NCBI GenBank assembly: GCA_035368605.1
Contig: DAOSLF010000001.1
Coordinates: 22,877 to 86,876, forward strand
Source: Candidatus Omnitrophota bacterium
GTDB taxonomy: Bacteria > Omnitrophota > Omnitrophia > Omnitrophales > Aquincolibacteriaceae
Length of the DNA: 64,000 nucleotides
Direction: 5' to 3'
The notes beneath the pieces are model-generated. The model saw nothing but the letters and a program-made list of their open reading frames with translations, did no database searches and was not told the origin of the DNA. Positions 21,484 to 44,873 of this stretch are shown piece by piece (position 1 is the stretch's first letter; each line of letters starts with the position of its first letter). Both the position numbers and the translations under genes were made by a program.

Positions 21484-22242
21484 TCAGATCAGGGACAGAC
21501 CGCCATCCGCGATGACGATCTGACCGACGATCCAGGAAGATTCGGGTGAGCAGAGGAATGTGATGACGCGCGCGAGGTCTTCGGGGGTTGCGACGCGGCC
21601 GGCCGGTGTCCTTTTGACGACTTCTTGCTTGAAGATCTCGAAAAAGGGGAATGCCTTCAGCGCATCCGTGTCCACAAGCCCGCCGGAGACTCCGTTCACC
21701 CGGATTCCCTTGGGCATCAGCTCCACCGCGAGATAACGGATCAGGCTTTCGAGCGCCGCCTTGGAGATACCGATGGCCCCGTAATTCGGGATGTAGCGGT
21801 GAGAACCCAGACTTGAGATCGCGAGGATCGCTCCTTCTTTTTTTGCCTCCATGCCCGGCAGGACCTTCTGGACCATGGCGAGGAAGGCCTTTGTGTTGAT
21901 GTTCATCGAAAGGTCGTATTGATTCATCTTGAGTTTGTGGACCGGCTTGAAGGCCCCGAGCGCGGCGTTGTGGATGAGGATGTCGATCGATCCAAAAGTT
22001 TTGGTGACATTCTCGAACAGCGCGGGGAGTGCGTCGAGGTCGCCGACATTGCACTGGAAGATTTCGGCTTTGACGCCTTTCAAGCGGATTTCTTCGGCCG
22101 TTTTTTGCGCGGCGCCTTCGTTCTGAAGATAATTGACCGCAATGTTCGCACCTTTTTCCGCGAGCGCGAGGGCCGTGGCTTTTCCGATCCCGCGGGATGC
22201 GCCAGTAATGAGGGCTGTCTTGCCATGAAGCGGTGTCGTCAT
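21484..22242 (-). CDS. SDR family reductase, FabL/FabG-like (enoyl- or ketoacyl-ACP reductase)
   Basis: MTTPLHGKTALITGASRGIGKA. Catalytic YGAIGISKAALE (YxxxK). Divergent from the radical SAM gene. Confidence 0.8.
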   Translation of the reverse strand: MTTPLHGKTALITGASRGIGKATALALAEKGANIAVNYLQNEGAAQKTAEEIRLKGVKAEIFQCNVGDLDALPALFENVTKTFGSIDILIHNAALGAFKPVHKLKMNQYDLSMNINTKAFLAMVQKVLPGMEAKKEGAILAISSLGSHRYIPNYGAIGISKAALESLIRYLAVELMPKGIRVNGVSGGLVDTDALKAFPFFEIFKQEVVKRTPAGRVATPEDLARVITFLCSPESSWIVGQIVIADGGLSLI

Positions 22243-22329
22243 AGGCCGAGAGAATAGCAAAGAACACCGGAAAGCTCAATTTAATTCCCCGTGGCCGGTA
22301 AAACAAATTCGGGTAAAAAAGGGAAAGTC

Positions 22330-22338
22330 TGTTATACT
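22330..22338 (+). promoter_or_regulatory. extended -10 element TGtTATACT placed 6 nt upstream of ATG (predicts a leaderless transcript for the radical SAM gene)
   Basis: TCTGTTATACTTCCGCA-ATG. The same TATACTTCCG motif recurs at 59474 and 63192. Confidence 0.5.
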
Positions 22339-22344
22339 TCCGCA

Positions 22345-23946
22345 ATGAAAGTTCTCCTGATTAATCCAAAATTCGCCCCGACGATCTGGTCGTTCGACGG
22401 TCTTCGCCCGTTCACGGGCACGAGTTTTTCGACGACCCCTCTCGGGCTCGCGACCGTCGCCGCCTTGACGCCCGCTTCCTGGGAAGTCGAAATTCTCGAC
22501 GAGAATGTCGAGCCGATCGATTTTGAAAAACCGGCCGATCTCGTTGCCGTCAGCGCCTTCAATGTCCAATACCGTCGCGCGATCGAGATCGCGCGCGAAT
22601 TCAGATCCCGCGGCCGGAAAGTGGCGTTTGGCGGACCGTATTGCAGCCTTTTTCCGGAGGCGTTCGAGGGCAAGGCCGACCACCGCATCGTGGGGGAGGC
22701 CGAGGACATTTGGCCGCTTTTTCTTCGTGATTTCGAAGAAGGCAAGGCGCTTGAGCTTTATGTGGCTCCGAAAGCGAGCGTGGATATCCGGAAGAGCCCT
22801 GTCCCGCGTTTTGATCTTATTAAGGGCGATCGATACAATATGTTTTCCCTTCAGACGACTCGAGGTTGTCCCTATAACTGTGAATTTTGCGATATCATCA
22901 TCATGGACGGCCGGAAACCCCGTACGAAGACCGTTCAGCAGGTGCTTGCCGAAGTGGACCATTGCGTTCAGCAGGGGGCCCATTACATCGTGTTCGGTGA
23001 CGCGAATTTTATCGGCAATATCGGCTTTGCCAGGGAACTGCTCACGGCCCTCGCGGATTATTCGAAAAAGAACGGCTACCCGATCGAGTTCTCATGCGAA
23101 TTGACGATCAATGTCGCCCATCACCCCGATCTTCTGGAGCTTCTTCAGGAGGCGAACTTCTACGCCGTTTTCGTGGGGATCGAATCGCCGAGGAAGCAAA
23201 GCCTCCTCGAAGCCGGAAAGTATCAGAACACGCGCGAGGACATCATCGAAGACATCAAGCGTATCCAGTCGTATCACATTTCGGTTGTTGCCGGCATGAT
23301 CGTCGGCTTTGATTCCGACGACAAGGGAATCTTCAAGGAGACCTACGATTTTCTCCAGGAACTCGGCATTGCGTTTACGACCTGCGGGACGCTGATGGCC
23401 CTGCCTCACACGCCGCTCCTTAAACGCCTTAAGGCCGAAGGGCGGCTTCTCGATCTCGAGTGGACGGGCATGAACGGTCACGGCGCTTCGGACTGCAATT
23501 TCATCCCGAAGCTCATGACGCTCGACGAACTGCGTAAAGGCTATAATTGGCTTAGCCGCTGCCTCTATCGTTACGATAGTTACGCTGACCGCCTTGTCGC
23601 CACGCTGAACCGTTTCAGGAACCGTAATAAAGAACATAAAAGAGCGAGTCTCGACACGAAATTCCTGAGCGTTCTCGTCAAGGTCTTCGCCTATTACACG
23701 CTGACCTTCGATCTCAAAAGGATGTCGTTTTTTTACGGAACCATGTGGCGTGTCGCGGTGGGCGGGCCCTTTTCTGTCGGGAAATGGCTGGAATTCTTCC
23801 GCTGGATCGCGACGCATCGCGCTTTTCGCCAATATGTGATGGAAACCCAGGGAGATCCGGAAGAAATGGATCCCAACTCGCCTCCGTTCGATGTCGAGTG
23901 TGCCCCGGTCACGGACGACAGTCCCCGGGAAGAGGTGTTGGTTTAA
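22345..23946 (+). CDS. B12-binding-domain radical SAM enzyme (class B radical SAM)
   Basis: N-terminal cobalamin-binding-like domain (MKVLLINPKF...DLVAVSA). Radical SAM cluster motif CPYNCEFC. About 530 aa with a C-terminal extension. Confidence 0.8.
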   Translation: MKVLLINPKFAPTIWSFDGLRPFTGTSFSTTPLGLATVAALTPASWEVEILDENVEPIDFEKPADLVAVSAFNVQYRRAIEIAREFRSRGRKVAFGGPYCSLFPEAFEGKADHRIVGEAEDIWPLFLRDFEEGKALELYVAPKASVDIRKSPVPRFDLIKGDRYNMFSLQTTRGCPYNCEFCDIIIMDGRKPRTKTVQQVLAEVDHCVQQGAHYIVFGDANFIGNIGFARELLTALADYSKKNGYPIEFSCELTINVAHHPDLLELLQEANFYAVFVGIESPRKQSLLEAGKYQNTREDIIEDIKRIQSYHISVVAGMIVGFDSDDKGIFKETYDFLQELGIAFTTCGTLMALPHTPLLKRLKAEGRLLDLEWTGMNGHGASDCNFIPKLMTLDELRKGYNWLSRCLYRYDSYADRLVATLNRFRNRNKEHKRASLDTKFLSVLVKVFAYYTLTFDLKRMSFFYGTMWRVAVGGPFSVGKWLEFFRWIATHRAFRQYVMETQGDPEEMDPNSPPFDVECAPVTDDSPREEVLV

Positions 23947-24029
23947 AAGATGCGGGATTGTCTCGGGATTGTCGAGGACCCGGATCCGCGGGCGAACCGG
24001 CCGAATGCTCCTCTCTTATAAAAAGATGC

Positions 24030-24059
24030 TTGGGAGCTAAAAAGTCCCTGTGTTATAAT
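24030..24059 (+). promoter_or_regulatory. strong candidate promoter: -35 TTGGGA, 18-nt spacer with TG, -10 TATAAT (TGtTATAATTCCG)
   Basis: Read directly in the rSAM-methyltransferase intergenic region. Confidence 0.55.
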
Positions 24060-24095
24060 TCCGAACCCTTGAACAGGGCAGGGACCATTTCTATT

Positions 24096-24731
24096 GTGGA
24101 ATCGCTCTCAAATACACTTCGGACATACCAGCGAAAACTGTTGGATACGTTAGTCAGGTGTCATTTTCGTCCGACGCTCGAAGCGAGGGCGGAATCATTC
24201 GTCAGGCTCTTTGAAACGTTTCTCCCGAAAGGGAGCCGGATTCTGGACCTCGGCGGCGGCTGGGGGTTCTATAGCGAACCGCTTGCCCGGCGCGGGCACG
24301 ATTCGCTCGTTCTTGATGTCGTAAAGCCGGGATATCAAAAGGCACCGGTTGTCATTTACGACGGGAGCAAGATCCCGTTCGGGGACAAAAGCTTTGATGT
24401 AACCCTCCTTGTGACCATGTTACATCATGTGCCGGACCCGGAGGCGCTGATGCGGGAGGTGACGCGCGTGACGCGCTCGCGGGTGGTCGTGGTCGAGGAT
24501 CTTTATCATCATGGAGCGGGACGTTTCTGGACCATCCTTCGGGACCGGTTGCTCAATATGGAGTTCGTGGAACATCCGCATCAGTTCCGGACCCACGGGG
24601 ATTGGCTTCATTTTTTTTGTAGTAAGGGGTTCCGGCTTGAGAAGTTCGCGCGGGTCTATACTTGGCTCGCGGGATTCCGTATTCTGAACGGTGTTTATGT
24701 TTGGGAGTGTGAACCATCGCTCCGCCATTGA
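24096..24731 (+). CDS. class I SAM-dependent methyltransferase
   Basis: Motif I ILDLGGGWGF and motif post-I VLDVV. The start is uncertain; the in-frame GTG at 24096 is the first start downstream of the promoter. Confidence 0.65.
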   Translation: MESLSNTLRTYQRKLLDTLVRCHFRPTLEARAESFVRLFETFLPKGSRILDLGGGWGFYSEPLARRGHDSLVLDVVKPGYQKAPVVIYDGSKIPFGDKSFDVTLLVTMLHHVPDPEALMREVTRVTRSRVVVVEDLYHHGAGRFWTILRDRLLNMEFVEHPHQFRTHGDWLHFFCSKGFRLEKFARVYTWLAGFRILNGVYVWECEPSLRH

Positions 24732-24766
24732 GAACGATACGCGGGGAATGACATCAAGGGCAGGAC

Positions 24767-25177
24767 ATGTCCACTGTTTCGATCGAAAAAGTGCTCTGGA
24801 TCAGGGAGGGAGAAGGGATCGCCGCTTGCGGCCGCATCCCGAGTGACTCGGAGTTTTTTCGCGATCATTTCCCCGAGTTCCCGGTCCTGCCGGGCGTGCT
24901 GGCGCTTGAGATGCTCAAACAGACAGCCGAGAAGTACTTGGCGTCGCTTGGGAACGGCGCGGGGGGCCGTTATTTCCTGAAGCATATCCGCGCGACGCGT
25001 TTCACGAAATATCTGCGTCCCGGGGACGAATGGGAAAGCCGGCTCACGCTGACGCAGAGTTCGGACGAAGAAACGGCTTGGGACGCCAGGCTTTATTATC
25101 ACGGTGAGGTCGCGGTATCCGCCAGACTGACGCTCGCCAGGGTCAAGAATCCTCAATCATCGGCGACATCGTTATAA
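24767..25177 (+). CDS. FabZ/FabA-like hot-dog 3-hydroxyacyl-ACP dehydratase (catalytically competent)
   Basis: FFRDHFPEFPVLPGVLALEMLKQ contains the catalytic His (HFP) and Glu of FabZ. Confidence 0.8.
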   Translation: MSTVSIEKVLWIREGEGIAACGRIPSDSEFFRDHFPEFPVLPGVLALEMLKQTAEKYLASLGNGAGGRYFLKHIRATRFTKYLRPGDEWESRLTLTQSSDEETAWDARLYYHGEVAVSARLTLARVKNPQSSATSL

Positions 25178-25196
25178 CGCAAGGAAAAGGAGAATC

Positions 25197-25607
25197 ATGA
25201 ATAACGAGATTTTCAAGAAAGTGCAGGAAACATTAGCCGGCGCGCTTGGTGTTGACGCCTCTGACGTCACGCCCGACGCCTCCCTGAAGAGAGACCTTGG
25301 CGCCGAATCGATCGATTTTATCGACATCATCTTCCGCCTGGAAAAAAGTTTCGACCTCAAGATTCCCGCGAACGACCTTTTCCCGAGCCATATCTTCACG
25401 AACGAACGTTTCGTGAAAGAGGGAATGGTCACTCCGGAAGGGATTCATGAACTCCGCACGAAACTTCCGTACCTTGACCTCGGGGCTTTCGACAAGGACC
25501 CGCAGGTTGTGAAGCTGGCCGATTATTTCACCGTCAAGATGATCCTCCGTTATCTGGAAGAGCGGCTGGGAAAATCCTCGGGTTGTTCCGGCACCTGCAA
25601 ATCGTGA
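25197..25607 (+). CDS. acyl carrier protein with roughly 55-aa C-terminal extension
   Basis: AAGGAG RBS. DLGAESIDFIDIIFRLEKSF is the ACP phosphopantetheine-attachment helix II region (Ser in AES). Unusual C-terminal tail ending SSGCSGTCKS. Confidence 0.8.
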   Translation: MNNEIFKKVQETLAGALGVDASDVTPDASLKRDLGAESIDFIDIIFRLEKSFDLKIPANDLFPSHIFTNERFVKEGMVTPEGIHELRTKLPYLDLGAFDKDPQVVKLADYFTVKMILRYLEERLGKSSGCSGTCKS

Positions 25608-25978
25608 CGGTCAAAACGCGCCGTCTTCATGGGGTCGGGGTCGATCTCGTATCCCGTTCGCGCATGAAAATGTTTCTGTCCCGCCATCGCGATATGATCA
25701 CGCGCAGGTTCCTGAATGACAGTGAGCGCCGGCGCCGCACCAACATCGGTCTCACGGAACTTGCGGAACTTTTCACCGCCAAGGAAGCTTTCTTCAAGGC
25801 CTGTAATGAGCCCTGGATGGGGTTAGGAGGTTTTCGGGGAATGCGGATCACGGAACGTCGCGGCGACGGATTCACCATGGAATGGAAGGTAGCTGGCACC
25901 CGGCGATGTTATCGCGGTGAGGGGGTTTTTTTCCGTGACGGTGATCTGGTCGGTGCCCACACGATGATCTGGAGTTGA
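25604..25978 (+). CDS. acpS: holo-ACP synthase (4'-phosphopantetheinyl transferase, AcpS type)
   Basis: GVGVDLV near the N-terminus and FTAKEAFFKA match AcpS motifs (GxGxDxV, AxKEAxxKA). GTG start overlaps the ACP stop (GTGA). Confidence 0.7.
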   Translation: MTVKTRRLHGVGVDLVSRSRMKMFLSRHRDMITRRFLNDSERRRRTNIGLTELAELFTAKEAFFKACNEPWMGLGGFRGMRITERRGDGFTMEWKVAGTRRCYRGEGVFFRDGDLVGAHTMIWS

Positions 25979-25980
25979 GT

Positions 25981-26415
25981 ATGCGTTGGCTTCTTCTTGA
26001 CAAAGTTCTCTCGATCCACCGTGGCAAACGAGCCGTGACCGAATCCCGTGTTCCCTGCGCGCCCTACTCAAGCGAAGTCCTTTTTGTCGAAATGATGGCC
26101 CAGACCGGAGGTCTTCTGGTCGGAGCGGAAAGCGATTACCGGAACGACGTGATCTTCGCGAAGATCGAGTCTGCTTCGTTCGCCGGGGTTCCGGCCCCAG
26201 GTACTCCGATCACGGTTGAGGCGTTCGCGGACGGGCTCGCTCCCGAGGGTGGGTGGATCGAAGGTGTGATAACAATGGCCGGCGTGGTCATCGCGAAGGC
26301 AAAACTGCTTCTTATGTCTGTCGGGCGGCTCGTCCCGGGGCATTCTCAACCCATCACCTTCCATGATAATTTCATGGAGCATTTCAAGGTCCGGGAGAAG
26401 GTGTCGGTATCATGA
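25981..26415 (+). CDS. hot-dog fold dehydratase-like protein lacking the catalytic His (probable non-catalytic DH partner)
   Basis: Hot-dog length and FVEMMAQTGGLL central helix resemble FabZ, but there is no HxP/HFP motif. Confidence 0.6.
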   Translation: MRWLLLDKVLSIHRGKRAVTESRVPCAPYSSEVLFVEMMAQTGGLLVGAESDYRNDVIFAKIESASFAGVPAPGTPITVEAFADGLAPEGGWIEGVITMAGVVIAKAKLLLMSVGRLVPGHSQPITFHDNFMEHFKVREKVSVS

Positions 26416-27701
26416 CCAGGCACCGGGTGGTCGTCACGGGGTTTGGTGTTATCAGCGCCTGCGGGAACGGATGGGAACCCTATTGGGACAGCGCTCTCCA
26501 GGGACGCTCGGCGGTTCGTGAAGTCGAACGTCTCAAACTGAACGGATTTTCTTTCAAATATGCCGGAACGATTCGGGATTTTGACCCCAAACAATACGTG
26601 GAGAACCGAAAATCCCTCAAGGTCATGTCCCGCGAGATCCAGCTCGCCGTGGGGGCCGCGAAGCTTGCCCTCCAGGATGCCGGTCTTTTCGGGACCGCTT
26701 ATGACCAGTCCCGCTTCGGTGTGACGCTCGGGACCGGTATCATCAATAACGATCTTGACGAGATCGGTGTGGGTTTCAAGAACGCGATCGATGGCTCGGG
26801 ACGTTTTTCGATGGCGAAGTTCGGCCAGGAAGGTGTCCGCTCTCTTTTTCCGCTCTGGTTCCTGAAATACCTTCCGAATATGCCTGCCTGTCACGTTTCG
26901 ATCGCTTACCATCTCCGGGGACCCAGCAACACGATCACGACATCCTCGGCGGCGGGGGCCCAGGCGATCGGGGAGGCGTATCGGGTGATCGAGCGCGGCG
27001 ACGCGGATATCATGCTGGCCGGCGGGACCGATTCAAAATTGAATGCGATGGGGATCTCCCGTTTCCATCTGCTCGGTCTTCTCTCAAAACGGGCCGGATT
27101 GCCGGAGCATGTCTACACGCCGTTCGATGAGCGTCACGACGGGATCGTGCTCGGGGAAGGAGCCGGCATTCTTGTTCTGGAATCGCTGGAGAACGCGAAA
27201 CGGCGCGGGGCTCCCATCTATGCCGAGATCACGGGTTATGGTTCCTCTTCGGATTTCAATTTCGATCCGCGTGACGAGGATGATTTCACCGGCAAGCGGG
27301 TCGCGATGCGGCGAGCGCTCGAAGACGCGGGGATCGAACATCACGACGTCGATGTGATCGTCGCAAACGGGAGCGGCGTTCCCCAGGGGGATATCCAGGA
27401 AGCCCTTGCCATCCACTCGTTCTGTATGGGGTCGTTCGACAAACAGAGCGTGACCGCGCTCAAATCCGTGACGGGAGATCTCGTCTACGGCTCGGGTGGT
27501 GTCGAGGCTGTGATCGCCGCGTTGATCGCCAACAAGCGGGTCGTACCGCCCGTGACCAATCTTAAAAAACCTTATCCGGAATGTCCGCTGCCGCTTGTCC
27601 GGGACAAAGCCAAGTCCGCCGACGTCACGAACGTCATGTTCAACAACTTCGGTTTCGGCGGACAGAACGCGTCACTGGTGTTCAAACATGTCAAAGCGTA
27701 G
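26412..27701 (+). CDS. ketosynthase-like protein lacking Cys/His/His catalytic triad (chain-length-factor-like KS-beta)
   Basis: Thiolase-fold KAS architecture. Active-site positions read ITTSSAAGAQAIGEA (Cys to Ser), DVIVANGSGV (His to Asn) and KSVTGDLVYGSGGVE (His to Asp). ATGA coupling to the upstream gene. Confidence 0.85.
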   Translation: MTRHRVVVTGFGVISACGNGWEPYWDSALQGRSAVREVERLKLNGFSFKYAGTIRDFDPKQYVENRKSLKVMSREIQLAVGAAKLALQDAGLFGTAYDQSRFGVTLGTGIINNDLDEIGVGFKNAIDGSGRFSMAKFGQEGVRSLFPLWFLKYLPNMPACHVSIAYHLRGPSNTITTSSAAGAQAIGEAYRVIERGDADIMLAGGTDSKLNAMGISRFHLLGLLSKRAGLPEHVYTPFDERHDGIVLGEGAGILVLESLENAKRRGAPIYAEITGYGSSSDFNFDPRDEDDFTGKRVAMRRALEDAGIEHHDVDVIVANGSGVPQGDIQEALAIHSFCMGSFDKQSVTALKSVTGDLVYGSGGVEAVIAALIANKRVVPPVTNLKKPYPECPLPLVRDKAKSADVTNVMFNNFGFGGQNASLVFKHVKA

Positions 27702-28983
27702 GATCGTCGTTACAGGAGTGGGGGCGGTGACGCCTCTCGGGAACAATGTCAGGGATACCTGGCTCCGTGTCACACAGGGTAAATCGGGGATCGGTCCTAT
27801 TACGCTTTTTGACGCCTCGACGTTCAACACGCGGATCGCGGGCGAAGTGAAAAATTTCAATTTTGAACGCTGGCTCGAACGGAACCCGCCACTCGCGTCT
27901 GCCACGCGCAGTACGTTCTTCGCGCTTCAGGCCGCCGCGGAAGCCTATAAAGACGCGATGTTGAAGCCGTTCAGTGTTGATTCGCGGCGCTTCGGCCTTT
28001 ATTTCGGTGCCGGGGACAGCGGAATCGATTTCGAGCCGTTTATCAAGACCCTCATGGCCTCCTTCGGCCCGGGCGCCGAGTTGGTCGATAAGGGGAAATA
28101 CCTCCACCATGCCCCGGAACACATGAGCGCCTTGCGCGAGCTCGAAAGCCAGCCGTTCATGACGGTAACGCATCTGACGCGCCTTTTCGACATCCGGGGT
28201 CCCGTGTCGAACTGTCTGACAGCCTGCGCGGCTTCCTCGCAGGCGATCGGCGAAGCTTACGAATGGATCAAGCGCGGTGATGCGGATGTTATGATGTCGG
28301 GCGGTTCTCATTCCATGGTCTATCCGCTGGGTATCGCGGGTTTCAGTCTCCTGACCGCGCTGTCGACGCGTAATTCGGAGCCCGAGAAAGCGTCGCGGCC
28401 GTTCGACAAGAAACGTGACGGTTTTGTGATCTCGGAAGGCGCTGGCGTGCTGATTATCGAGGAACTCCAGCACGCGAAGAAACGCAAGGCGCATATTTAT
28501 GGTGAGGTTGTCGGCTACGGTTCGACAGCCGACTCGTACCGGCTTACGGATATGGATCCGGAGGCTCGCGGGGCCTCGGAGGCGATGCGGATCGCGATGA
28601 CGAAAGCCGGCATCGGACCCGCTGACGTTGATTACATCAACGCGCACGGGACCTCGACCTCGGTCAACGACTCTCTTGAAACAACCGTAATCAAGAAGGT
28701 CATGGGGGAGTATGCGAAGAAGATCCCTGTGAGCTCGACCAAATCGATGCTTGGGCATATGATCGCGGCGGCGGGTGGTGTGGAAGCGATCTTCTGCCTG
28801 CTCGCAATGCGTGATTCGATCATCCCTCCGACGATCAATTATGAAGAGCCCGACCCGGAACTCGATCTGGACTATGTTCCCAACGTTGCCCGCCGCACCG
28901 ACGTGAATGTCGCGCTTTCCAACTCATTTGGCTTCGGCGGTCAGAATATCTGCTTGGCATTGAGGAGATACGATGGCGCATGA
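27688..28983 (+). CDS. beta-ketoacyl-ACP synthase (FabF-like KS-alpha, catalytic)
   Basis: Start MSKRRIVVTGVGAV. CLTACAASSQAIGEA (Cys), YINAHGTSTSVND (His) and KSMLGHMIAAAGGVE (His). Overlaps the KS-beta 3' end by 14 nt. Confidence 0.9.
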   Translation: MSKRRIVVTGVGAVTPLGNNVRDTWLRVTQGKSGIGPITLFDASTFNTRIAGEVKNFNFERWLERNPPLASATRSTFFALQAAAEAYKDAMLKPFSVDSRRFGLYFGAGDSGIDFEPFIKTLMASFGPGAELVDKGKYLHHAPEHMSALRELESQPFMTVTHLTRLFDIRGPVSNCLTACAASSQAIGEAYEWIKRGDADVMMSGGSHSMVYPLGIAGFSLLTALSTRNSEPEKASRPFDKKRDGFVISEGAGVLIIEELQHAKKRKAHIYGEVVGYGSTADSYRLTDMDPEARGASEAMRIAMTKAGIGPADVDYINAHGTSTSVNDSLETTVIKKVMGEYAKKIPVSSTKSMLGHMIAAAGGVEAIFCLLAMRDSIIPPTINYEEPDPELDLDYVPNVARRTDVNVALSNSFGFGGQNICLALRRYDGA

Positions 28984-30064
28984 TCTTGTTTTTATGACCG
29001 GAGCGACCGGTGTGCTCGGTCAGGAGCTTGTCAAAAAACTGCTGCTCACGACGGAGTCCGATATCGCGATTCTTTCACGCGCGAAGAATCGCGTGCCCCA
29101 TGCCGAGCGTGTCCGGAAGATCCTGAAGGCGGCGGGGATGGACGCCCATTTCGGTTCGCGGGTCCGCGTGGTGGAAGGGGATGTCACGAAGCGTAAATTC
29201 GGATTGAAGAAAGAGGATCTCGATTTTCTCGAAAGGGAATGCCGCGTTTTTTATCATATTGCCGCCCTGACCGCGTTGAATGGAACGGATAAGGAATGCC
29301 AGCAGATTAATGTGGGCGGGACCGAACACGCGCTTGAGCTTGCGTGGGATCTCCGGAAAAAGGGGAATCTCGAGCGCTTTATCTATTTCAGCACCGCGTT
29401 CGTGGCCGGCAGTGTCTGGAATTACCGGTCTACGGAGGATTCGCTTCCCGAGAAACCCGCATTTGCAAACTACTACGAGTCCAGCAAGCATGAGGCAGAA
29501 GGCAAGGTCCGGAAGGCGATGGGACACGGCCTGCCGGTGACCATCATCCGGCCGAGCATCGTGGTCGGCGACTCCGTGACGGGCGAGGTTTCCGATTTTA
29601 ACGTGATCTACCCTTTCATCAAACTGTTCGCGCACGGCATCCTGACGAAGCTTCCGACCCACCCTGAGAATACGTTCAATATCGTGCCGATCGATTTCGT
29701 CATCAACGCGACGACGGCCATCGTCAGGAATCCCCGATCGATCAACAAGTGTTTCCATCTGGTGTCGCCGGAGCCGCCTTCCATCGGTTCCCTGGTGGCT
29801 CTCCGCGAATCTTTCCCGAAGGTCGCCAAGATCGAGATGATCGATCCGTCGAGCTTTAAAAAGGACCAGCTGGACCCGCAGGGGCAGATGGTCTTTTCGA
29901 TGCTGGAGCCCTATCTCGGTTATTTGAACGGCAAGTTGACCTTCGACACCTCGAACACCGAAGAAATCCTGCGTGATACGGACGTCCGGATGCCTGAGAC
30001 GGGTCCCGCTTTCCTGAAAACGCTGATCACCTATGCCGCCAAGGCGGGATATTTGGCGATCTGA
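28973..30064 (+). CDS. stand-alone thioester reductase (NAD(P)-dependent, extended SDR; fatty acyl-ACP/CoA reductase-like terminal R domain)
   Basis: FMTGATGVLGQELVKKLL (TGxxGxxG) and YYESSKHEAE (YxxxK) with the overall TR-domain layout. Overlaps the KS stop. Confidence 0.75.
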   Translation: MAHDLVFMTGATGVLGQELVKKLLLTTESDIAILSRAKNRVPHAERVRKILKAAGMDAHFGSRVRVVEGDVTKRKFGLKKEDLDFLERECRVFYHIAALTALNGTDKECQQINVGGTEHALELAWDLRKKGNLERFIYFSTAFVAGSVWNYRSTEDSLPEKPAFANYYESSKHEAEGKVRKAMGHGLPVTIIRPSIVVGDSVTGEVSDFNVIYPFIKLFAHGILTKLPTHPENTFNIVPIDFVINATTAIVRNPRSINKCFHLVSPEPPSIGSLVALRESFPKVAKIEMIDPSSFKKDQLDPQGQMVFSMLEPYLGYLNGKLTFDTSNTEEILRDTDVRMPETGPAFLKTLITYAAKAGYLAI

Positions 30065-30577
30065 CGGGTTCCGGAGCGTTTCGGTATGTTTTTAGCGGCG
30101 GATCGGAAATAGCGCAAATCCGATCGGTCCAGGGAGCGCATGAAGGAGATGCCCTCCGGTCAGTTGTTCCATCCGGTGCGCGTTTTTTGTCGTGCTTCTT
30201 GTCTTTCTTGCCTGTCCCTCTATCCCCGAATTAGCGGCCGACCCTGTATCTGTCTCCGCCACGGATAACGCATGATAATGTCAATGTTCTTATGCAAGGA
30301 TTGAGAGGCGTTTTCTCGAAGATCAGTTCCCGGACCCTGTTTTTCAGCCCCTAGGGATTTTTATCGGTGTGAATGGCGGGGGGGGATATGAGGTTCTGGT
30401 CACGGGCATCGGAAGATTGGTTTGCGCGGGCCATTCCACCCGATCCTTTCGAGATACGGGCGCTTTTTGATCCCGTCAGCCTATGCCGGGAAAGCCGCTC
30501 GGGCCAGCCGGAACCGGGATGGTCGCGTTGCTTCAAAAGAAAAAACAATGGCCAAGGCGGAATAGGGGTTTTTATTT

Positions 30578-31753
30578 CTATCGCCAGTGTGTCGGGTGTT
30601 TCAGCGCGGCCATTTTCAGGGCATCCGCGAGGATGAGCGTGAAAACGGCGGCGGCAAGCGGATGAAACAATGCTGATACCGGATTCGCCTTGACTATCGT
30701 ATGGGTCTTAAACGCCGTGATCCAGATGATGAACGCAAGTCCTGTCGCCAGAATCCCGGCCAGTGAATTTCCGAAACAGAAAGGCAGGATGGCGAACGGT
30801 AACACCGAAAAAAGAAAAGTGCTCAGGACACAGCGTAGAAGGTCCGCCGGATTTTGTTCAAAGGCGTGAAGGTAGATGCGCCGCCACCCCCGCCATAGCG
30901 TCTCGAACGAGTCATACATCCGGGTACCATAGAGATTCATTCCGAAAGCGCAAATCCCCTTTGCCCCGGTTTCCTTGGTCTTTCTCATCAGCGCGAAGTC
31001 TTCGAGAAAAGCCTCCTTGACCGCGTGATGACAGCCGAGTTTCCGGTAATGGCTGTGCCGGAGAAGGAGGTACTGGCCGTTTCCGAAGTAGACCTTTGAT
31101 TCGGGATCGTTGATCTTCCGGACAGGGAACCATAGCCCCATGTAGCCCATCGCGCAGGGCTGGATGAGGTTTTCCCAGAAGCCGTGAGCCAGACAGCGGG
31201 GAAGCAGGGTCAGGAGGTCAAGGGAGTTTGTTTCCGAAAAAGCGATCGCGGCGTCGACGCTTCCCGGTTCGTGTCTTGTGTCGGCGTCCGTGAAAAGCAG
31301 CCAGTCGCCTTTGGCGTAGTCTTTGCCGAGATGAAGCGCATAGTTCTTTCCCGTCCAGCCTTCAGGAGTCTCGGGAGTATTGAGATATCCCAAAAAGGGT
31401 CCGTCGCTACTGTCCTTTTTTGTACCGAAAAAGGTGCCTGACCCCTTGATTTCCTCAGCGCCAAGGTCTTTCAGGATCGCTTCGGTTCTGTCTGTGGAGC
31501 CGTTATTGATGACGATGATCTCATCGCTCTCTCGGAGCTGGCTCAAAAAGGGCCGGACGCATGCCGCGATGTTTTTTTCCTCGTTCCGGGCCGGGATCAG
31601 GACCGTCACAGAACCTTTGCGAATGTTTCCGGAAGGAATTCTGAGCGCGGGGGCTTGGGCCAGTTCGGAGAGGGACCGGATGCTACGGTAAATCCATACA
31701 CCAAGCGCAGTCAGGAGATAGGTCAGGAGGATGGGCTCCATAGAGTCAGGCAT
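30578..31753 (-). CDS. membrane-anchored GT2 glycosyltransferase
   Basis: N-terminal TM, VLIPARNEE, IIVINNGSTDRT and FTDADT (DxD), plus C-terminal hydrophobic helices. Start assumed at MPDSMEPILLTY. Confidence 0.7.
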   Translation of the reverse strand: MPDSMEPILLTYLLTALGVWIYRSIRSLSELAQAPALRIPSGNIRKGSVTVLIPARNEEKNIAACVRPFLSQLRESDEIIVINNGSTDRTEAILKDLGAEEIKGSGTFFGTKKDSSDGPFLGYLNTPETPEGWTGKNYALHLGKDYAKGDWLLFTDADTRHEPGSVDAAIAFSETNSLDLLTLLPRCLAHGFWENLIQPCAMGYMGLWFPVRKINDPESKVYFGNGQYLLLRHSHYRKLGCHHAVKEAFLEDFALMRKTKETGAKGICAFGMNLYGTRMYDSFETLWRGWRRIYLHAFEQNPADLLRCVLSTFLFSVLPFAILPFCFGNSLAGILATGLAFIIWITAFKTHTIVKANPVSALFHPLAAAVFTLILADALKMAALKHPTHWR

Positions 31754-31821
31754 CTTAGCAAATGGAGATGGCGGGTCAAGGAAAACTATCAACGGCTAGC
31801 ATTTCTAATCGTTGGGATGGA

Positions 31822-35398: not shown

Positions 35399-36304
35399 AT
35401 GGAACTTCAAATCTATATCGACGGTAAATGGTATCCCAGGAGTGAAGCGAAAGTGTCTGTCTTCGATCACGGCCTTCTTTACGGAGACGGTGTTTTTGAG
35501 GGGATTCGCGCCTACGATGGAATCGTCTTCAAGCTCGAGGAGCATCTCAAACGGCTCTGGGAGTCGGCCCATACGATCATGCTCGAAATTCCGATGACGC
35601 CCAGGGAAATGGAAAAAGCCGTTATTGAAACCCTTCGCAGGAACAAGCTGACGAGCGGCTATATCCGACTGGTCGTCACGCGCGGCACGGGGGACCTCGG
35701 ACTATCGCCCTTTCTCTGCAAGAAACCGACAGTTTTCATTATCACGGACAAGATTGCACTTTATCCGGCGGATTTGTACCAGAAAGGGTTGGAGATTATC
35801 ACCGTTCCGACCGTCCGGAATCTCCCCGAGGCCGTGAATCCGTCGATCAAAAGCCTGAACTATCTCAATAATATCATGGCCAAGATCGAGGCAAGGAACG
35901 GCGGTTGTATGGAAGCGCTGATGCTCAACCACCAGGGCTACGTCGTAGAATGCACGGGTGACAATGTGTTCATGGTCAAGAAAACCGGCAAGGGGTCGGC
36001 CGTGAAGGATTGCACGCTTTTGACGCCTCCGTCCTATCTCGGAGCGCTCAAGGGGATCACGCGTGATGCGATCATCGAGATTGCCCGCAAACTCAAACTG
36101 CCTTTCGCGGAAAGAATCCTGACGCGGCATGATTTTTTTAACGCCGATGAGGTATTCCTCACGGGAACGGCGGCGGAGGTCATCCCGGTCGTCAAGATCG
36201 ACGGACGCGTTGTCGGAAGCGGTAAGCCGGGCAAGATTACCAAACTGCTTTTGGAGGATTTTCACGCGCTGGTCCGCAAGGACGGGGTCCGGTTCTCCCT
36301 TTGA
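35399..36304 (+). CDS. ilvE: branched-chain amino acid aminotransferase (class IV PLP)
   Basis: AAGGAG RBS. YGDGVFEGIRAY and EVFLTGTAAEV motifs. Confidence 0.85.
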   Translation: MELQIYIDGKWYPRSEAKVSVFDHGLLYGDGVFEGIRAYDGIVFKLEEHLKRLWESAHTIMLEIPMTPREMEKAVIETLRRNKLTSGYIRLVVTRGTGDLGLSPFLCKKPTVFIITDKIALYPADLYQKGLEIITVPTVRNLPEAVNPSIKSLNYLNNIMAKIEARNGGCMEALMLNHQGYVVECTGDNVFMVKKTGKGSAVKDCTLLTPPSYLGALKGITRDAIIEIARKLKLPFAERILTRHDFFNADEVFLTGTAAEVIPVVKIDGRVVGSGKPGKITKLLLEDFHALVRKDGVRFSL

Positions 36305-36326
36305 TCGGGCCGGGAGCGAAGCGAAC

Positions 36327-36848
36327 ATGATCTGCAATGTGTGCGGGACAAAGGAAGCGACGATTCACCTGACCGAGGTTGTGAGCGGTCAGATGGCGGA
36401 AGTGCATATCTGCGAGCAGTGCGCCGAAGAGAAGGGGACGGATTTCAAGACCTATTTCAACTTTGGCGACTTCTTCACGGGTTTCGCGGGGATCGGAAAA
36501 CTTCTTGAGACGCCGGGGGAAAAAACCGCGGTCGCCTGCAAATCCTGCGGTATGACCTTCGAGGAATTCTCCAAACAGGGACGTCTTGGATGCGCGCAGT
36601 GTTATACCGCGTTTCATCGTCAGCTTGAAGCCGTGATCAAACAGGTCCAGCGGGCGGGGGTCCATGTCGGCAAAAAACCGTCCAGAATCCCGAAGGATGT
36701 TCGGCGCGCTCACGATCTCCGCCAGCTTCAGGACCGTCTGCGCAAATGCATCCAGAACGAGGCGTTTGAGGAAGCGGCGCGCCTTCGCGACGAGATCAGG
36801 CAGATCGAAGACAAGAACAAGCGCCCGAGGAAAACAAAAAATGACTGA
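36327..36848 (+). CDS. mcsA: protein-arginine kinase activator McsA-like (zinc-finger plus UVR domain)
   Basis: Paired CxxC motifs (CNVCG...CEQC; CKSCG...CAQC). C-terminal UVR motif AFEEAARLRDEIRQIE. Confidence 0.7.
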   Translation: MICNVCGTKEATIHLTEVVSGQMAEVHICEQCAEEKGTDFKTYFNFGDFFTGFAGIGKLLETPGEKTAVACKSCGMTFEEFSKQGRLGCAQCYTAFHRQLEAVIKQVQRAGVHVGKKPSRIPKDVRRAHDLRQLQDRLRKCIQNEAFEEAARLRDEIRQIEDKNKRPRKTKND

Positions 36849-37905
36849 GAACGGTTCTTCGCCGGCGCAGTCGGTCAACTGGCTTCGGGCCACGGGTCCC
36901 GAGAACGATGTGGTCGTCAGCTCCCGCATACGGCTCGCGCGCAATCTCGCGAATTACCCGTTCCTGATCAAGATGACGCCCGATCAGCGGATCGCCCTGA
37001 TCGCGGAGATGGAAAAGGCGGTCCGCGCCTCGAGTTTTCTGAAGAAGGCCAACATGATCCTGACGAAGGAGATCGGCGAGATCGACCGGCAGTTCCTTCT
37101 CGAGCGGTATCTGATTTCGAACGCGCTGGTGCGCGAGGACGGTGCGAGCGCGGTTGTGATCACGCCGGATGAAATGGTCAGCCTCATGATGATCGAGGAA
37201 GACCACCTCCGGCTCCAGGTCTTCCAGTCGGGGCTGAACCTTGCCGAGGCGTGGCGCATTGCCGACGAGATCGATATGGAACTCGAAAAGAGCCTTAGTT
37301 ACGCTTTTGACGCGACGCTTGGTTACCTGACGGCCTGCCCGACGAATGTCGGGACCGGTATTCGCGCCTCCTGCATGCTGCATCTGCCGAGCCTTGTGAT
37401 TACGAAACAGATCCAGAAGGTGTTGCAGGCGCTTTCAAAACTGAACCTCGCGGTGCGAGGCCTTTACGGCGAAGGGACACAGGCGCTCGGGAGTTTTTTC
37501 CAGTTCTCGAACCAGATCACGCTCGGACAGCCTGAGACGGAGATCATCTCGAATCTCGAAGGAGTCATTAAACAGGTAATCACGCATGAGCGGGAGGCGC
37601 GGGAATATCTCCGGAAGAAACGCAAAACAAAAATGGAAGACCAGGTGTGGCGGGCGCTCGGCGTTCTGAAATCGGCGAGGCTCATCTCGTCCCAGGAAGC
37701 GATCCAGCTTTTGTCGCTTGTGCAGACCGGTGTCGATACCGGGATCATCGAAGGCCGGGTGACCCACCGGGACCTGAACCAGCTTTTTTTATGGATCCAG
37801 CCCGGGCATCTCCAAAAAATGCACGGGTCGGAACTCAGCGCTGCGGATCGCGACATTCAACGCGCTGACCGGATCCGGACGTTCTTCTCAAAGTTGTTAC
37901 TTTAA
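36841..37905 (+). CDS. mcsB: protein arginine kinase McsB (ATP:guanido phosphotransferase)
   Basis: Phosphagen-kinase signature CPTNVGTGIRAS. Overlaps the mcsA 3' end. Confidence 0.85.
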   Translation: MTENGSSPAQSVNWLRATGPENDVVVSSRIRLARNLANYPFLIKMTPDQRIALIAEMEKAVRASSFLKKANMILTKEIGEIDRQFLLERYLISNALVREDGASAVVITPDEMVSLMMIEEDHLRLQVFQSGLNLAEAWRIADEIDMELEKSLSYAFDATLGYLTACPTNVGTGIRASCMLHLPSLVITKQIQKVLQALSKLNLAVRGLYGEGTQALGSFFQFSNQITLGQPETEIISNLEGVIKQVITHEREAREYLRKKRKTKMEDQVWRALGVLKSARLISSQEAIQLLSLVQTGVDTGIIEGRVTHRDLNQLFLWIQPGHLQKMHGSELSAADRDIQRADRIRTFFSKLLL

Positions 37906-37908
37906 CCC

Positions 37909-39621: not shown

Positions 39622-39667
39622 GCGAGTGTCGTTCGTCATCGTACCATAAAATCTCCGGAGGTTTTTC

Positions 39668-44060: not shown

Positions 44061-44873
44061 ATGACGCGGTGGGGGAATCTTAAAAGACTGGTCAGTGTCA
44101 GGTCCTGGCTCGGGCATTTTGGCGGGCTGTGCGTTGAGTTTTTTGAGGATGCGGGCGGGATCGCCCTTCTCTTTCGGGATACCTGTGCGCATCTTTTCAG
44201 GAACAGGATTCGATGGAAAATGACGCTCGATCAGATGAACAAGATCGGCGTGATGTCATTGCCGCTTGTCTTCCTGACATCACTCTTCACGGGGATGGTG
44301 CTGGCTCTCCAGTCCGCTTATCAGCTCCGTCTCTTCGCGGCTGAAAAGTTCACGTCCGACCTGATCGCGGTTTCCCTGTGTCGCGAGCTCGGTCCGGTCC
44401 TCACCGCAATGGTCGTCGCGGGCCGCGTCGGCGCCTCGATCGCTGCGGAGCTCGGGACCATGAAGGTCACCGAACAGATCGACGCACTGAAGGCGCTTGC
44501 CGCGAGCCCGATCCAGTATCTCGTGATCCCCCGATTCGTTGCGGCGCTTTTCATGCTTTTCGTGCTGACGATCTACGCGGATTGCATCGGGATGTTCGGC
44601 GGGTACCTGATTTCGGTTTTCAAGCTCGGCATGAGTTCTCACACGTACATCAAACGCGGCATGGACGCGCTTATGGTGAAGGACGTTGTGACGGGGCTCA
44701 TTAAAGCGTTTTTCTTCGGGGGGTTCATTTCGATCGTGGGATGTTTCTACGGTTTCCGCGCACGCGGCGGCGCCGAAGGCGTGGGACGTGCGACGACGCT
44801 TGCGGTCGTTGTTTCGCTGATTCTCGTCATCGCTTCGGACGCGCTTTTTTCCGCGATTTTTTATTTCTTTTAA
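44061..44873 (+). CDS. mlaE: MlaE-family ABC transporter permease
   Basis: LALQSAYQLRLFAAEKFTSDLIAVSLCRELGPVLTAMVVAGRVGASIAAELGTMKVTEQIDAL matches the MlaE/YrbE core. Confidence 0.8.
   Translation: MTRWGNLKRLVSVRSWLGHFGGLCVEFFEDAGGIALLFRDTCAHLFRNRIRWKMTLDQMNKIGVMSLPLVFLTSLFTGMVLALQSAYQLRLFAAEKFTSDLIAVSLCRELGPVLTAMVVAGRVGASIAAELGTMKVTEQIDALKALAASPIQYLVIPRFVAALFMLFVLTIYADCIGMFGGYLISVFKLGMSSHTYIKRGMDALMVKDVVTGLIKAFFFGGFISIVGCFYGFRARGGAEGVGRATTLAVVVSLILVIASDALFSAIFYFF

Follow-up and report, generated by a model that had tools for sequence, protein, structure and literature searches.

Eight contiguous genes in the genome of a Candidatus Omnitrophota bacterium, from a methyltransferase to a terminal thioester reductase (TR), appear to form a dedicated lipid operon that resembles type II fatty acid synthase (FAS-II) and is conserved across Omnitrophota. 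We put the probability of this reading, with a fatty aldehyde or alcohol lipid destined for the cell envelope as the product, at roughly 0.55. The window analysed here is a 64,000-nucleotide stretch of that genome, and the locus comprises 11 open reading frames at positions 21484–31792 (Table 1). All 11 lie where the original prediction had placed them, with two starts revised: the radical SAM gene begins at 22345 and not 22291, and the KS-alpha gene at 27688. Pfam and NCBIfam profile searches back the domain calls throughout, and the functions first assigned hold for every gene except the short-chain dehydrogenase/reductase (SDR), whose type changes.

Table 1 Features of the locus, in window coordinates
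Feature	Position	Strand	Evidence or remark
FabL-type enoyl-ACP reductase (SDR)	21484..22242	-	Divergent from operon; NCBIfam FabL NF005975, 306 bits
B12-binding/Radical_SAM/DUF4070 protein	22345..23946	+	Three Pfam domains; HpnP-like architecture; motif CPYNCEFC
Sigma-70-like promoter match	24030..24059	+	TTGGGA-18-TATAAT with upstream TG; 10/12 matches; consensus match only
Class I SAM-dependent methyltransferase	~24069..24731	+	Pfam Methyltransf_11/23/25; opens conserved operon
FabZ-like 3-hydroxyacyl-ACP dehydratase, predicted catalytic	24767..25177	+	Pfam FabA; His and Glu kept
Acyl carrier protein (ACP), 136 aa	25197..25607	+	PP-binding, residues 8-62 only
AcpS-type phosphopantetheinyl transferase	25604..25978	+	Pfam ACPS, 44.6 bits
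His-less hot-dog protein, presumed non-catalytic dehydratase partner (DH′)	25981..26415	+	Alignment
KS-beta, FabF-like, chain-length-factor-like	26412..27701	+	Ser/Asn/Asp at Cys/His/His positions
KS-alpha, predicted catalytic FabF-like ketosynthase	27688..28983	+	Cys/His/His/Lys intact
Stand-alone thioester reductase-like enzyme (TR), last gene of operon	28973..30064	+	Pfam NAD_binding_4, 180 bits
Membrane GT2, HpnB/CruG lipid-glycosylating type	30578..31753	-	Convergent with operon; Pfam Glycos_transf_2, Glyco_transf_21

Conservation of the eight-gene unit

The conserved unit consists of the methyltransferase, FabZ-like dehydratase, ACP, AcpS, DH′, KS-beta, KS-alpha and TR genes. A synteny check across related genomes recovered the same eight-gene order in all seven other Omnitrophota loci (L006–L010, L089 and L090); AcpS, present in most orthologous operons, is missing from L008. 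Translational coupling had been proposed for the cluster, and gene overlaps bear it out at five junctions, from ACP/AcpS through KS-alpha/TR: 4 nt at each of ACP/AcpS, AcpS/DH′ and DH′/KS-beta, where KS-beta starts at an ATGA shared with the DH′ stop codon, 14 nt at KS-beta/KS-alpha and 11 nt at KS-alpha/TR. Methyltransferase orthologues (52–70% identity) come first in the operon in L006–L010 and L089. The window copy has no ATG start, the candidates being TTG at 24030, TTG at 24069 and GTG at 24096, and its best NCBIfam match is the DVU_1556 family (41 bits; BioC, 19 bits). The operon is set among the housekeeping genes SecA, Lnt, LysRS and LolCDE in conserved synteny.

The flanking genes are more variable. 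In L006–L010 a FabL orthologue lies upstream of the operon (61–83% identity) and a GT2 orthologue follows TR (44–65% identity), placing both genes at the flanks in five of the seven other loci, and an MMPL exporter is found in two of the seven. A lipid-type GT2 beside the operon, as first described, is supported by HpnB-like and CruG-like matches (125 and 108 bits, both under cutoff); its orientation is convergent. No GT2 or FabL gene lies within 10 kb of the operon in the closest relative (L089/L090), and glycosylation is therefore not a constant trait. The absence of an MMPL export gene likewise holds for the window but not for relatives, in which MMPL adjoins GT2.

The neighbouring B12 radical SAM gene

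The original prediction counted the B12-binding radical SAM gene as a member of the cluster, but none of the other seven Omnitrophota loci has this B12/DUF4070 gene in the cluster. It adjoins the operon in the window lineage only and is not a core part of it. A promoter-like site, a consensus match only, lies between its stop codon and the methyltransferase start; the promoter scan returned 10 sites for the region, where chance alone would give 4.3. The gene is conserved in its own right, with orthologues of 57–87% identity found phylum-wide in surroundings that vary and are often lipid-related: two other contigs have it next to LuxC/LuxE/LuxD-like genes for fatty aldehydes, others next to type III PKS or LPG-synthase genes, and the 87%-identical orthologue is in an unrelated context. 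The CxxxCxxC motif is present in the window protein and in 120 of 120 orthologues, and an AF2 model (pLDDT 87.5) has AprD4, MgmA, TsrM, CysS and TokK as its nearest solved folds. Its B12-binding, radical SAM and DUF4070 domains are those of HpnP and 'HpnP-like' proteins (PMC10697835), the characterised members of which methylate lipid carbons. Unlike HpnP, however, the window protein matches neither hopanoid methylase nor HpnJ models significantly (HpnR, 34 bits with a cutoff of 650; HpnJ, 48 with 578), and the window holds no hopanoid genes.

These observations bear on a pathway of the ladderane-cluster kind, in which the radical SAM enzyme would be a true member and would methylate, cyclise or cross-link the chain, either during its growth or after release. 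Adjacency in the window, the HpnP-like architecture, the lipid-related neighbourhoods of the orthologues and the antiSMASH 'ladderane' clusters reported from Omnitrophota MAGs (PMC9902471) are consistent with it, as is the presence, immediately behind TR in the closest relative, of three other B12 radical SAM genes. Those three, in L089, fall into different subfamilies (≤26% identity), with unrelated GT2 genes between them. The window protein falls outside the ladderane-associated family TIGR04072, its best NCBIfam match (80 bits, cutoff 360), and the cluster has no phytoene-desaturase-like gene. Together with absence of the gene from the seven other orthologous clusters, the unrelated context of its 87%-identical orthologue and the promoter-like site that splits it from the operon, these points make such a pathway unlikely. 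We favour a separately conserved Omnitrophota gene for what is plausibly a lipid C–H-functionalising enzyme; the product of the operon may or may not be its substrate.

A general kinship with the 'ladderane-like' FAS clusters of non-anammox bacteria, suggested at the outset, does hold. Anammox Cluster I (kuste3603–3608) encodes amxACP, amxFabZ, amxFabF2, amxFabFmut, a PDH-like protein and a B12 radical SAM enzyme. Both clusters are FAS-II-like, come from the PVC superphylum, have a dedicated ACP and FabZ, pair a catalytic KS with a triad-less KS and lack FabH; both have an adjacent B12 radical SAM gene (for Omnitrophota, in the window), and for both the product is still putative. The Omnitrophota cluster differs in adding DH′, AcpS, a methyltransferase and a terminal TR, in lacking the desaturase-like gene, and in a radical SAM gene that is neither of the TIGR04072 family nor conserved with the cluster. 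At the positions where KS-beta carries Ser and Asn, the amxFabFmut residues are Val or Thr and Asn, Glu or Cys. The likeness is one of gene content. The window KS proteins are 38–43% identical to Escherichia coli FabF, whereas a similarity of 27–32% is given for the anammox pair (bioRxiv 10.64898/2026.05.19.726425).

Elongation, reduction and release enzymes

The predicted pairing of a catalytic with a triad-less ketosynthase is borne out. KS-alpha keeps Cys/His/His and scores 487 bits against TIGR03150 fabF (cutoff 494) and 480 against NF005589 (cutoff 387, passed). KS-beta, 34% identical to it, has Ser/Asn/Asp at the positions of Cys163/His303/His340; of 120 orthologues, 98 have S and 19 have A in place of the Cys, 116 have N in place of His303, and all keep Lys335. 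In a neighbour-joining tree KS-alpha clusters with Planctomycetota KSs that are themselves paired with triad-less partners, canonical FabFs including those of Omnitrophota standing apart; this clade with triad-less partners and a long ACP occurs in Planctomycetota too.

The pairing of a dehydratase with a His-less partner is likewise sustained. The FabZ-like protein (Pfam FabA, 44.7 bits; NCBIfam FabZ, 61 bits, under the cutoff of 113) keeps its His (DHFP) and Glu (LALE) in every aligned orthologue, and its orthologues carry precomputed ApeI-like Pfam matches. DH′ keeps the Glu, but in the alignment an 11-residue deletion takes out its His loop; it has no Pfam match and matches NCBIfam FabZ weakly (31 bits), and in a Pirellulaceae homologue Tyr replaces the His. 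The ACP has its attachment Ser within GAESID and an insertion of about 46 residues after helix II that Omnitrophota share with Pirellulaceae locus L040; the full-length ACP is matched by over 150 clusters (50% identity).

We consider it very unlikely that the organism uses these genes as its housekeeping type II fatty acid synthase, in which the KS would be an unusual heterodimer. The strongly FabF-like KS-alpha, the conserved setting among SecA, Lnt, LysRS and LolCDE and the adjoining FabL point in that direction. However, the window contains no fabH, fabD, fabG or acc genes, the presence of the first three nearby having been named in the original prediction as a sign of this alternative; the ACP is atypical (59 bits against a cutoff of 71); KS-alpha forms a clade distinct from the canonical Omnitrophota FabFs; and a terminal TR would divert acyl chains from phospholipid synthesis. 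Canonical FabG–AcpP–FabF operons are common elsewhere in the phylum, in MAGs other than the window's genome, as illustrated by L027 (79-aa AcpP), which has more than 120 close orthologues.

The SDR had been taken for a ketoreductase. Its scores favour FabL (NF005975, 306 bits with a cutoff of 328) over FabG (models at ≤174 bits) and, with a Y-x6-K motif (PNYGAIGISK), mark it as an enoyl-ACP reductase of FabL type. A largely saturated product is therefore more probable than a polyene of the aryl-polyene (APE) type, and the cluster lacks a ketoreductase or malonyl transferase of its own. This argues against a cluster for an APE-like or other polyene pigment, whose highly reducing type II PKS would skip enoyl reduction. 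APE clusters also carry a methyltransferase, a glycosyltransferase and MMPL (here present in relatives), serve an envelope-associated lipid, and have the same KS/CLF and DH/DH′ pairs (ApeO/ApeC and ApeI/ApeP), a likeness extended by the ApeI-like matches of the FabZ-like orthologues. The APE-type architecture first proposed stands as far as this pairing goes but not at the level of sequence: canonical FabF outscores solved KS/CLF proteins (APE or ishigamide; entries 7f27, 6kxd and 1tqy) for both KS proteins. The absence of aryl-starter and release genes was correctly described, a Pfam domain search of the locus finding no ammonia-lyase, CoA-ligase, thioesterase or LolA-like gene. With enoyl reduction and predicted reductive release in place of hydrolysis or transfer, a polyene product is highly doubtful.

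Reductive release, as originally proposed, is supported by the terminal TR. It contains TGATGVLG and YESSK motifs, and among solved structures it is closest to PKS/NRPS terminal reductases, with the alcohol-forming MxaA reductase domain (4u7w, 85 bits) first. Its TIGR01746 score of 164.5 bits lies under the cutoff of 213, so an acyl-ACP substrate is inferred. There is little to recommend an acpXL-like module that would supply very-long-chain fatty-acyl groups to LPS or to some other lipid of the envelope, with TR as a sugar or lipid epimerase/dehydrogenase: the ACP–FabZ–KS–KS layout resembles the specialised elongation module acpXL–fabZXL–fabF1XL–fabF2XL (PMC5613085), the envelope genes Lnt and Lol are syntenic and TR also matches Epimerase (59 bits), 3Beta_HSD and HpnA (58 bits), but NAD_binding_4 is far the best match, TR's solved relatives are terminal reductases and no LpxXL-like acyltransferase is present.

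Related systems and a proposed pathway

The rhizobial acpXL cluster remains instructive as an elongation module with a specialised ACP, FabZ and two FabF paralogues that uses housekeeping reductases, although it ends in a lipid A acyltransferase (lpxXL) and not a reductase, lacks DH′, methyltransferase and AcpS, and has an ACP without the 46-residue insertion. The inventory of the cyanobacterial heterocyte glycolipid (hgl) island is also similar: KS, CLF, DH, ER, ACP, thioester reductase, PPTase, glycosyltransferase and exporter together yield fatty-alcohol glycosides (PMC11804610), a long-chain alcohol being glycosylated and exported. Unlike the hgl system, which is multidomain and type I PKS-like with its own AT and KR and ABC/DevBCA export, the Omnitrophota loci encode discrete type II enzymes and, in relatives, an MMPL exporter, and there is no sequence-level orthology.

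In the favoured reading of a dedicated FAS-II-like operon, AcpS would, judging by its family, phosphopantetheinylate the insertion-bearing ACP, and malonate would be loaded by housekeeping FabD, borrowed because the cluster has no acyltransferase. A KS/CLF-like heterodimer from anammox bacteria both decarboxylates malonyl-ACP and produces acetoacetyl-ACP (bioRxiv 10.64898/2026.05.19.726425); by analogy with that amxFabF2/amxFabFmut pair and with type II KS/CLF, KS-alpha and KS-beta may self-prime by decarboxylation and then elongate. Housekeeping FabG presumably fills the gap at 3-keto reduction, the FabZ-like/His-less pair would dehydrate in the manner of ApeI/ApeP, and the adjacent FabL-type enzyme would saturate the enoyl intermediate. 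The methyltransferase could add an O- or C-methyl group at some stage, and the NAD(P)H-dependent terminal reductase would free the chain from ACP as an aldehyde or alcohol, which the HpnB/CruG-like membrane GT2 probably glycosylates and, in relatives, the adjacent MMPL/HAE3 transporter probably exports to the envelope.

The cluster is real, and no characterised pathway matches it; the original claim to that effect agrees with our comparison with the closest known systems. Judged from its gene content, the operon probably yields a long-chain lipid in Omnitrophota that is released by reduction and possibly linked to a sugar, and its fatty alcohols could equally enter ether lipids or wax esters instead of glycosides.

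Gene content and active sites of the operon

Open reading frame tabulation and profile searches recovered the complete set of eleven genes described in the original prediction, extending from 21484 to 31792. Eight core genes, running from a methyltransferase to a putative thioester reductase (TR), form the operon, flanked by an SDR gene, a radical SAM gene and a GT2 gene. The prediction had called these genes mostly translationally coupled. Coupling is borne out in the latter half, where start-codon inspection reveals overlaps at the five junctions from ACP to TR (4 nt each for ACP/AcpS, AcpS/DH′ and DH′/KS-beta, 14 nt for KS-beta/KS-alpha and 11 nt for KS-alpha/TR). KS-beta and the radical SAM protein each have a match of 100% identity among Candidatus Omnitrophota MAG proteins. 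The operon flanks are housekeeping in character, including genes for RF, SPFH, SecA, Lnt, EF-P, LysRS, LolC/E and LolD, as well as IlvE-like, McsB/ClpC, Mla, IspDF, CysRS and MetRS genes. A tRNA is the sole Rfam match in the window, with no RNA element within the cluster, and a terminator-like hairpin 3′ of TR (30071–30084) was dropped, its stability being at the level of shuffled sequence (z = 0.24).

Genes of the operon and its immediate neighbours, with the evidence for each assignment
Feature	Position	Strand	Evidence
SDR, FabL-like	21484–22242	minus	profile search
B12-binding/Radical_SAM/DUF4070 protein	22345–23946	plus	profile search
Class I SAM methyltransferase, non-ATG start	about 24069–24731	plus	profile search
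FabZ-like hot-dog protein	24767–25177	plus	profile search
ACP, 136 residues	25197–25607	plus	profile search
AcpS	25604–25978	plus	profile search
Second hot-dog protein (DH′), without Pfam match	25981–26415	plus	
KS-beta, FabF-like ketosynthase	26412–27701	plus	profile search
KS-alpha, FabF-like ketosynthase	27688–28983	plus	profile search
TR, NAD_binding_4 reductase	28973–30064	plus	profile search
Membrane GT2, convergent with operon	30578–31753	minus	profile search

Active sites were read by alignment to E. coli FabF and FabZ, and the alignment itself supports the reference sequences used (E. coli FabF is 42.5% identical to KS-alpha). KS-alpha retains all of Cys163, His303, Lys335 and His340, and KS-beta carries Ser, Asn, Lys and Asp at these positions. 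Among the best 120 KS-beta orthologues the catalytic Cys is missing in 118, replaced by Ser (98), Ala (19) or Thr (1) and present in 2; Asn occupies the His303 position in 116, Lys335 is present in all 120 and His340 is retained in 89. The FabZ-like protein keeps both catalytic His and Glu, and its partner DH′ has lost the His loop through an 11-residue deletion but retains Glu. The alignments thus bear out the predicted pairing of a ketosynthase with a triad-less KS and of a dehydratase with a His-less one. The window FabZ-like protein matches only the FabA family in Pfam, and ApeI-like Pfam matches are on record for its orthologues.

Profile scores for several of the remaining proteins fall short of model cutoffs. 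The ACP reaches 59 bits where the cutoff is 71. TR matches NAD_binding_4 at 180 bits (cutoff 20) and TIGR01746 at 164.5 bits, below the cutoff of 213; it carries TGATGVLG (TGxxGxxG type) and YESSK (YxxxK type) motifs, and its best solved match is the MxaA reductase. The assignment of the SDR refines the original prediction, which had listed it simply as an SDR reductase. It scores 306 bits with the FabL model NF005975, slightly under the cutoff of 328, against at most 174 bits with FabG models, and in its motif YGAIGISK the Tyr and Lys are spaced as in enoyl reductases (Y-x6-K), not as in FabG (YxxxK). By sequence, the SDR, the only one in the cluster, matches a FabL-type enoyl-ACP reductase, although its model score lies below cutoff; the cluster would therefore have an enoyl reductase without a ketoreductase or malonyl transferase of its own. 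BioC-like priming by the methyltransferase would be speculation, the BioC match being negligible (19 bits, E = 9e-4).

Other features of the window lie outside the operon. Positions 2609–9853 hold a 915-aa STT3/PglB-like oligosaccharyltransferase gene, followed by two GT2 genes, a 410-aa ORF without annotation and a GT4 gene. The group resembles a glycosylation cluster of the protein or lipid-linked kind, which to our knowledge is unusual in bacteria outside Campylobacterota and Desulfobacterota. Genes for a UVR-motif protein (McsA-like), an ATP:guanido phosphotransferase (McsB-like), a DUF4140/DUF4139 protein and ClpC stand in a row at 36129–42130 and look like a protein-arginine-kinase/ClpC quality-control module of the kind best known from Firmicutes. 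A 638-aa ORF without a Pfam match (42137–44053) lies directly 5′ of an MlaE/MlaF/MlaD-like lipid transport operon (44061–46474). A 685-aa Polysacc_synt flippase ORF (58139–60196, minus strand) and a glycoside hydrolase family 1 ORF (59471–60712, plus strand) have about 725 nt in common; as the domain of the flippase begins only at residue 280, the 685-aa ORF has probably been drawn too long at its 5′ end.

Conservation in Omnitrophota and the housekeeping alternative

More than 120 KS-beta orthologues share 56–100% identity with the window protein, and among the matches listed all of those with an organism name are from Omnitrophota. A scan of genome contigs with a KS-beta profile, whose KS motif is generic, listed mostly canonical FabFs; the matches listed also included two more true orthologues and a few relatives from Planctomycetota. 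The order methyltransferase-FabZ-ACP-(AcpS)-DH′-KS-beta-KS-alpha-TR is identical in all seven other Omnitrophota loci compared (L006–L010, L089 and L090), of which L089 and L090 are nearest to the window (KS-alpha 91%, KS-beta 86%). In five of the seven, a divergent FabL gene lies upstream and a convergent HpnB/CruG-like GT2 gene downstream (GT2 identity 44–65%). An MMPL/HAE3 transporter gene follows the GT2 gene in L006 and L008 (NCBIfam HAE3 212 bits, HpnN 90 bits), L006 also has a fatty-acid desaturase gene 3′ of TR, and in four loci the cluster lies 3′ of SecA-Lnt, matching the window arrangement.

The ACP is distinguished by a conserved insertion of about 46 residues, which separates the helix II region from the last helix; the ACPs of some Omnitrophota also have a Cys-rich C-terminal tail (SGCSGTCKS). 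The 46-residue insertion is common to Omnitrophota and Pirellulaceae: the ACP of a Pirellulaceae locus (L040, 8838–9224) is 49% identical to the window protein and carries the same insertion. The insertion-bearing family comprises more than 150 clusters at 50% identity with a full-length match; among ten sampled, one bore an organism name, Phycisphaerales.

These observations are best accounted for by a dedicated, FabH-independent, FAS-II-like operon, the product of which would be released reductively from the ACP and then, probably, glycosylated and exported. The gene set and architecture first described are confirmed, and their first interpretation is supported in part. That the operon is instead the housekeeping type II FAS of the organism is very unlikely. 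No fabH, fabD, fabG, canonical fabF, acc or MMPL gene was found across the 64-kb window, the 136-aa ACP departs from the canonical AcpP of about 78 aa, and not all KSs are competent, with Ser, Asn and Asp in the KS-beta triad. A housekeeping role is also opposed by the reductase at the end of the operon, the unusual ACP, the KS without a triad and the separate KS clade, and the window gives no sign of the simple fab operon that the original prediction had named as its refutation. An Omnitrophota MAG locus (L027) encodes FabG (325 bits, cutoff 298), a 79-aa AcpP and a canonical FabF with more than 120 orthologues at 77–100% identity, several of them named Omnitrophica, so the phylum does possess a canonical FAS II. 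Among the matches listed, no contig was shared by canonical FabF and KS-beta matches. At the left edge of the window (1–564, minus strand) is a partial FabG-like SDR gene, cut by that edge, whose product is 25% identical to L027 FabG over 195 residues.

The neighbouring radical SAM gene

Synteny comparison puts the radical SAM gene outside the conserved part of the cluster to which the original prediction had assigned it: the DUF4070 gene that lies between FabL and the methyltransferase in the window is missing from all seven orthologous clusters. In GCA_964385615.1 the cluster and the radical SAM gene share a contig but are about 70 kb apart. In the window, the stop codon of the radical SAM gene is followed, ahead of the methyltransferase gene, by a promoter-like site (24030–24059, by consensus match only). 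Omnitrophota encode more than 100 orthologues of the radical SAM protein at 57–87% identity, all with the CxxxCxxC motif, which reads CPYNCEFC in the window.

The protein combines B12-binding, radical SAM and DUF4070 domains, as do HpnP and the uncharacterised ‘HpnP-like’ proteins, a family defined in PMC10697835. Against TIGR04072, the ‘lipid biosynthesis B12/radical SAM’ family, it scores 80 bits (cutoff 360). The nearest folds to an AlphaFold model (pLDDT 87.5) are AprD4, MgmA, TsrM, CysS and TokK, a mixture of methylases (MgmA, TsrM, CysS and TokK) and a non-methylating dehydratase (AprD4), and the model would place the protein among class B-type enzymes.

Lipid or acyl genes occur in about half of the radical SAM contexts, with fatty-aldehyde-forming Lux genes in two. 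One orthologue (L003, 10001–15877, 81% identity) lies beside EF-P and is followed by genes for YceI, a FAD monooxygenase, a type III PKS and a UbiE-type methyltransferase, a set that resembles an alkylresorcinol or alkylquinone cluster. Orthologues at L001 and L002 adjoin genes for LPG_synthase_C, a FAD enzyme and a 4HBT thioesterase. The closest orthologue described here (L091, 87%) has HTH genes on one side and sigma-70 on the other, and those at L004, L005 and L092 have unrelated neighbours. LuxC, LuxE and LuxD-like genes are fatty-acid-reductase (fatty aldehyde) genes. On two JGI contigs encoding radical SAM proteins with 58–60% identity to that of the window, one orthologue (P0116) seems to share an operon with LuxC, a hexapeptide transferase gene, LuxE and a LuxD-like gene, and the other (P0114) has a LuxD-like gene, an AMP-ligase gene and a metal hydrolase gene close by. 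These Lux neighbours are a second, independent tie of the radical SAM family to aldehyde-forming lipid enzymes.

In the closest relatives of the window operon, three other B12 radical SAM genes, with two GT2 genes lying among them, start about 200 bp 3′ of TR (L089, 13852–20256; L090, 9927–16331). Their products are HpnJ/BchE-like (207, 190 and 354 bits, all under cutoff), mutually different and at most 26% identical to the window enzyme; the GT2 proteins are AglJ/PpgS-like and MftF-like. Together with the lipid and Lux contexts, these genes leave room for a functional link. On the best-supported reading, the radical SAM gene is conserved independently of the operon, adjoins it only in the lineage of the window and has a product that is possibly lipid-modifying.

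Relatives in Planctomycetota and comparison with known systems

We compared the window proteins with the collected loci by tblastn and placed the KSs in a neighbour-joining tree. KS-alpha groups with catalytic KSs of Pirellulaceae, Planctomycetaceae, Phycisphaerae and other Planctomycetota (50–54% identity), apart from canonical FabFs (42–47%), including those of the Omnitrophota loci L027 and L052. Wherever the upstream gene is visible (L020, L048 and L054), a triad-less KS (E/T/N or D/Q/N) precedes the planctomycete KS. The KS pair of L054 shows translational coupling to a gene for an NAD-dependent epimerase/NAD_binding_4 protein, and the Pirellulaceae locus L040 holds FabZ, ACP, His-less DH′ and KS genes together. 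The shared KS clade, triad-less partners and long ACP point to a module that is a feature of the PVC superphylum with variable accessory genes. Altered active sites are also present in FabB/F paralogues of Rhodopirellula (Rattray et al., 2009; PMC2649909).

Anammox Cluster I consists of amxACP, amxFabZ, amxFabF2, amxFabFmut, a PDH-like gene and a B12 radical SAM gene (PMC10139942). By gene content and active sites, the window operon resembles it in having a dedicated ACP, a FabZ, a catalytic KS and a triad-less KS. Unlike in Cluster I, the window radical SAM protein falls outside TIGR04072 and is not conserved with the cluster, and no phytoene-desaturase-like flavoenzyme was found in the window. 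A flavin amine-oxidase/phytoene-desaturase-like gene (L040, 13607–14860), about 2.3 kb 3′ of the FabZ-ACP-DH′-KS cluster, recalls the PDH-like gene of Cluster I. The anammox heterodimer decarboxylates malonyl-ACP and forms acetoacetyl-ACP (2026 preprint, bioRxiv 10.64898/2026.05.19.726425). Such decarboxylation is a precedent for FabH-independent priming in the window operon. The window KS proteins are much closer to FabF than the anammox pair is. PDB chains 9s5h_B and 9s5h_C, which may be the anammox heterodimer although the preprint gives no PDB codes, score below canonical FabF against both window KSs, a result from which we draw no conclusion.

With APE clusters the operon shares a KS/CLF pair and a DH/DH′ (ApeI/ApeP-type) pair; unlike them, it lacks aryl starter, ketoreductase and thioesterase genes and has a predicted enoyl reductase. 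Ammonia-lyase, CoA ligase and thioesterase domains, which the original prediction had called absent, were not found between 17 and 37 kb of the window, and neither were those of a 4-HBA route, an adenylating enzyme or a FabG-type ketoreductase, the sole SDR there being FabL-like. In the acpXL cluster, which has a dedicated ACP, FabZ and two FabFs, housekeeping reductases can suffice (PMC5613085). The hgl island encodes KS, CLF, DH, ER, ACP, TER, PPTase, GT and an exporter and yields exported fatty-alcohol glycosides (PMC11804610). We consider it the best functional analogue of the operon, with the same functional inventory, although hgl proteins are type I.

A more far-reaching proposal, to which we give only a small chance of being right, would join these strands. 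The operon and its Planctomycetota relatives would together represent a KS/CLF lipid module that spans the PVC group, works independently of FabH and uses an insertion-bearing ACP; anammox ‘ladderane’ Cluster I would be a derived offshoot of this module. B12 radical SAM enzymes, repeatedly recruited beside the operon in lineages like that of the window, would act on the reductively released chain to give a methyl-branched, cyclised or cross-linked fatty-alcohol glycolipid new to lipidomics.

Omnitrophota are widespread, uncultured and mostly ultra-small bacteria. Their main genomic survey does not discuss lipids (PMC10066038), and a study that lists antiSMASH ‘ladderane’ clusters for Omnitrophota MAGs does not analyse them further (PMC9902471). 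The operon may explain such calls outside anammox bacteria. The KS-alpha clade, triad-less partner and insertion-bearing ACP also occur in non-anammox Planctomycetota and so provide a comparative set for KS/CLF-type FAS modules of the PVC group, a comparison that bears on the role of the anammox cluster too. Conservation of this lipid operon across the phylum, its defined boundaries and its small core of eight genes make it a practical target for heterologous expression, and it could give a biomarker lipid for Omnitrophota.
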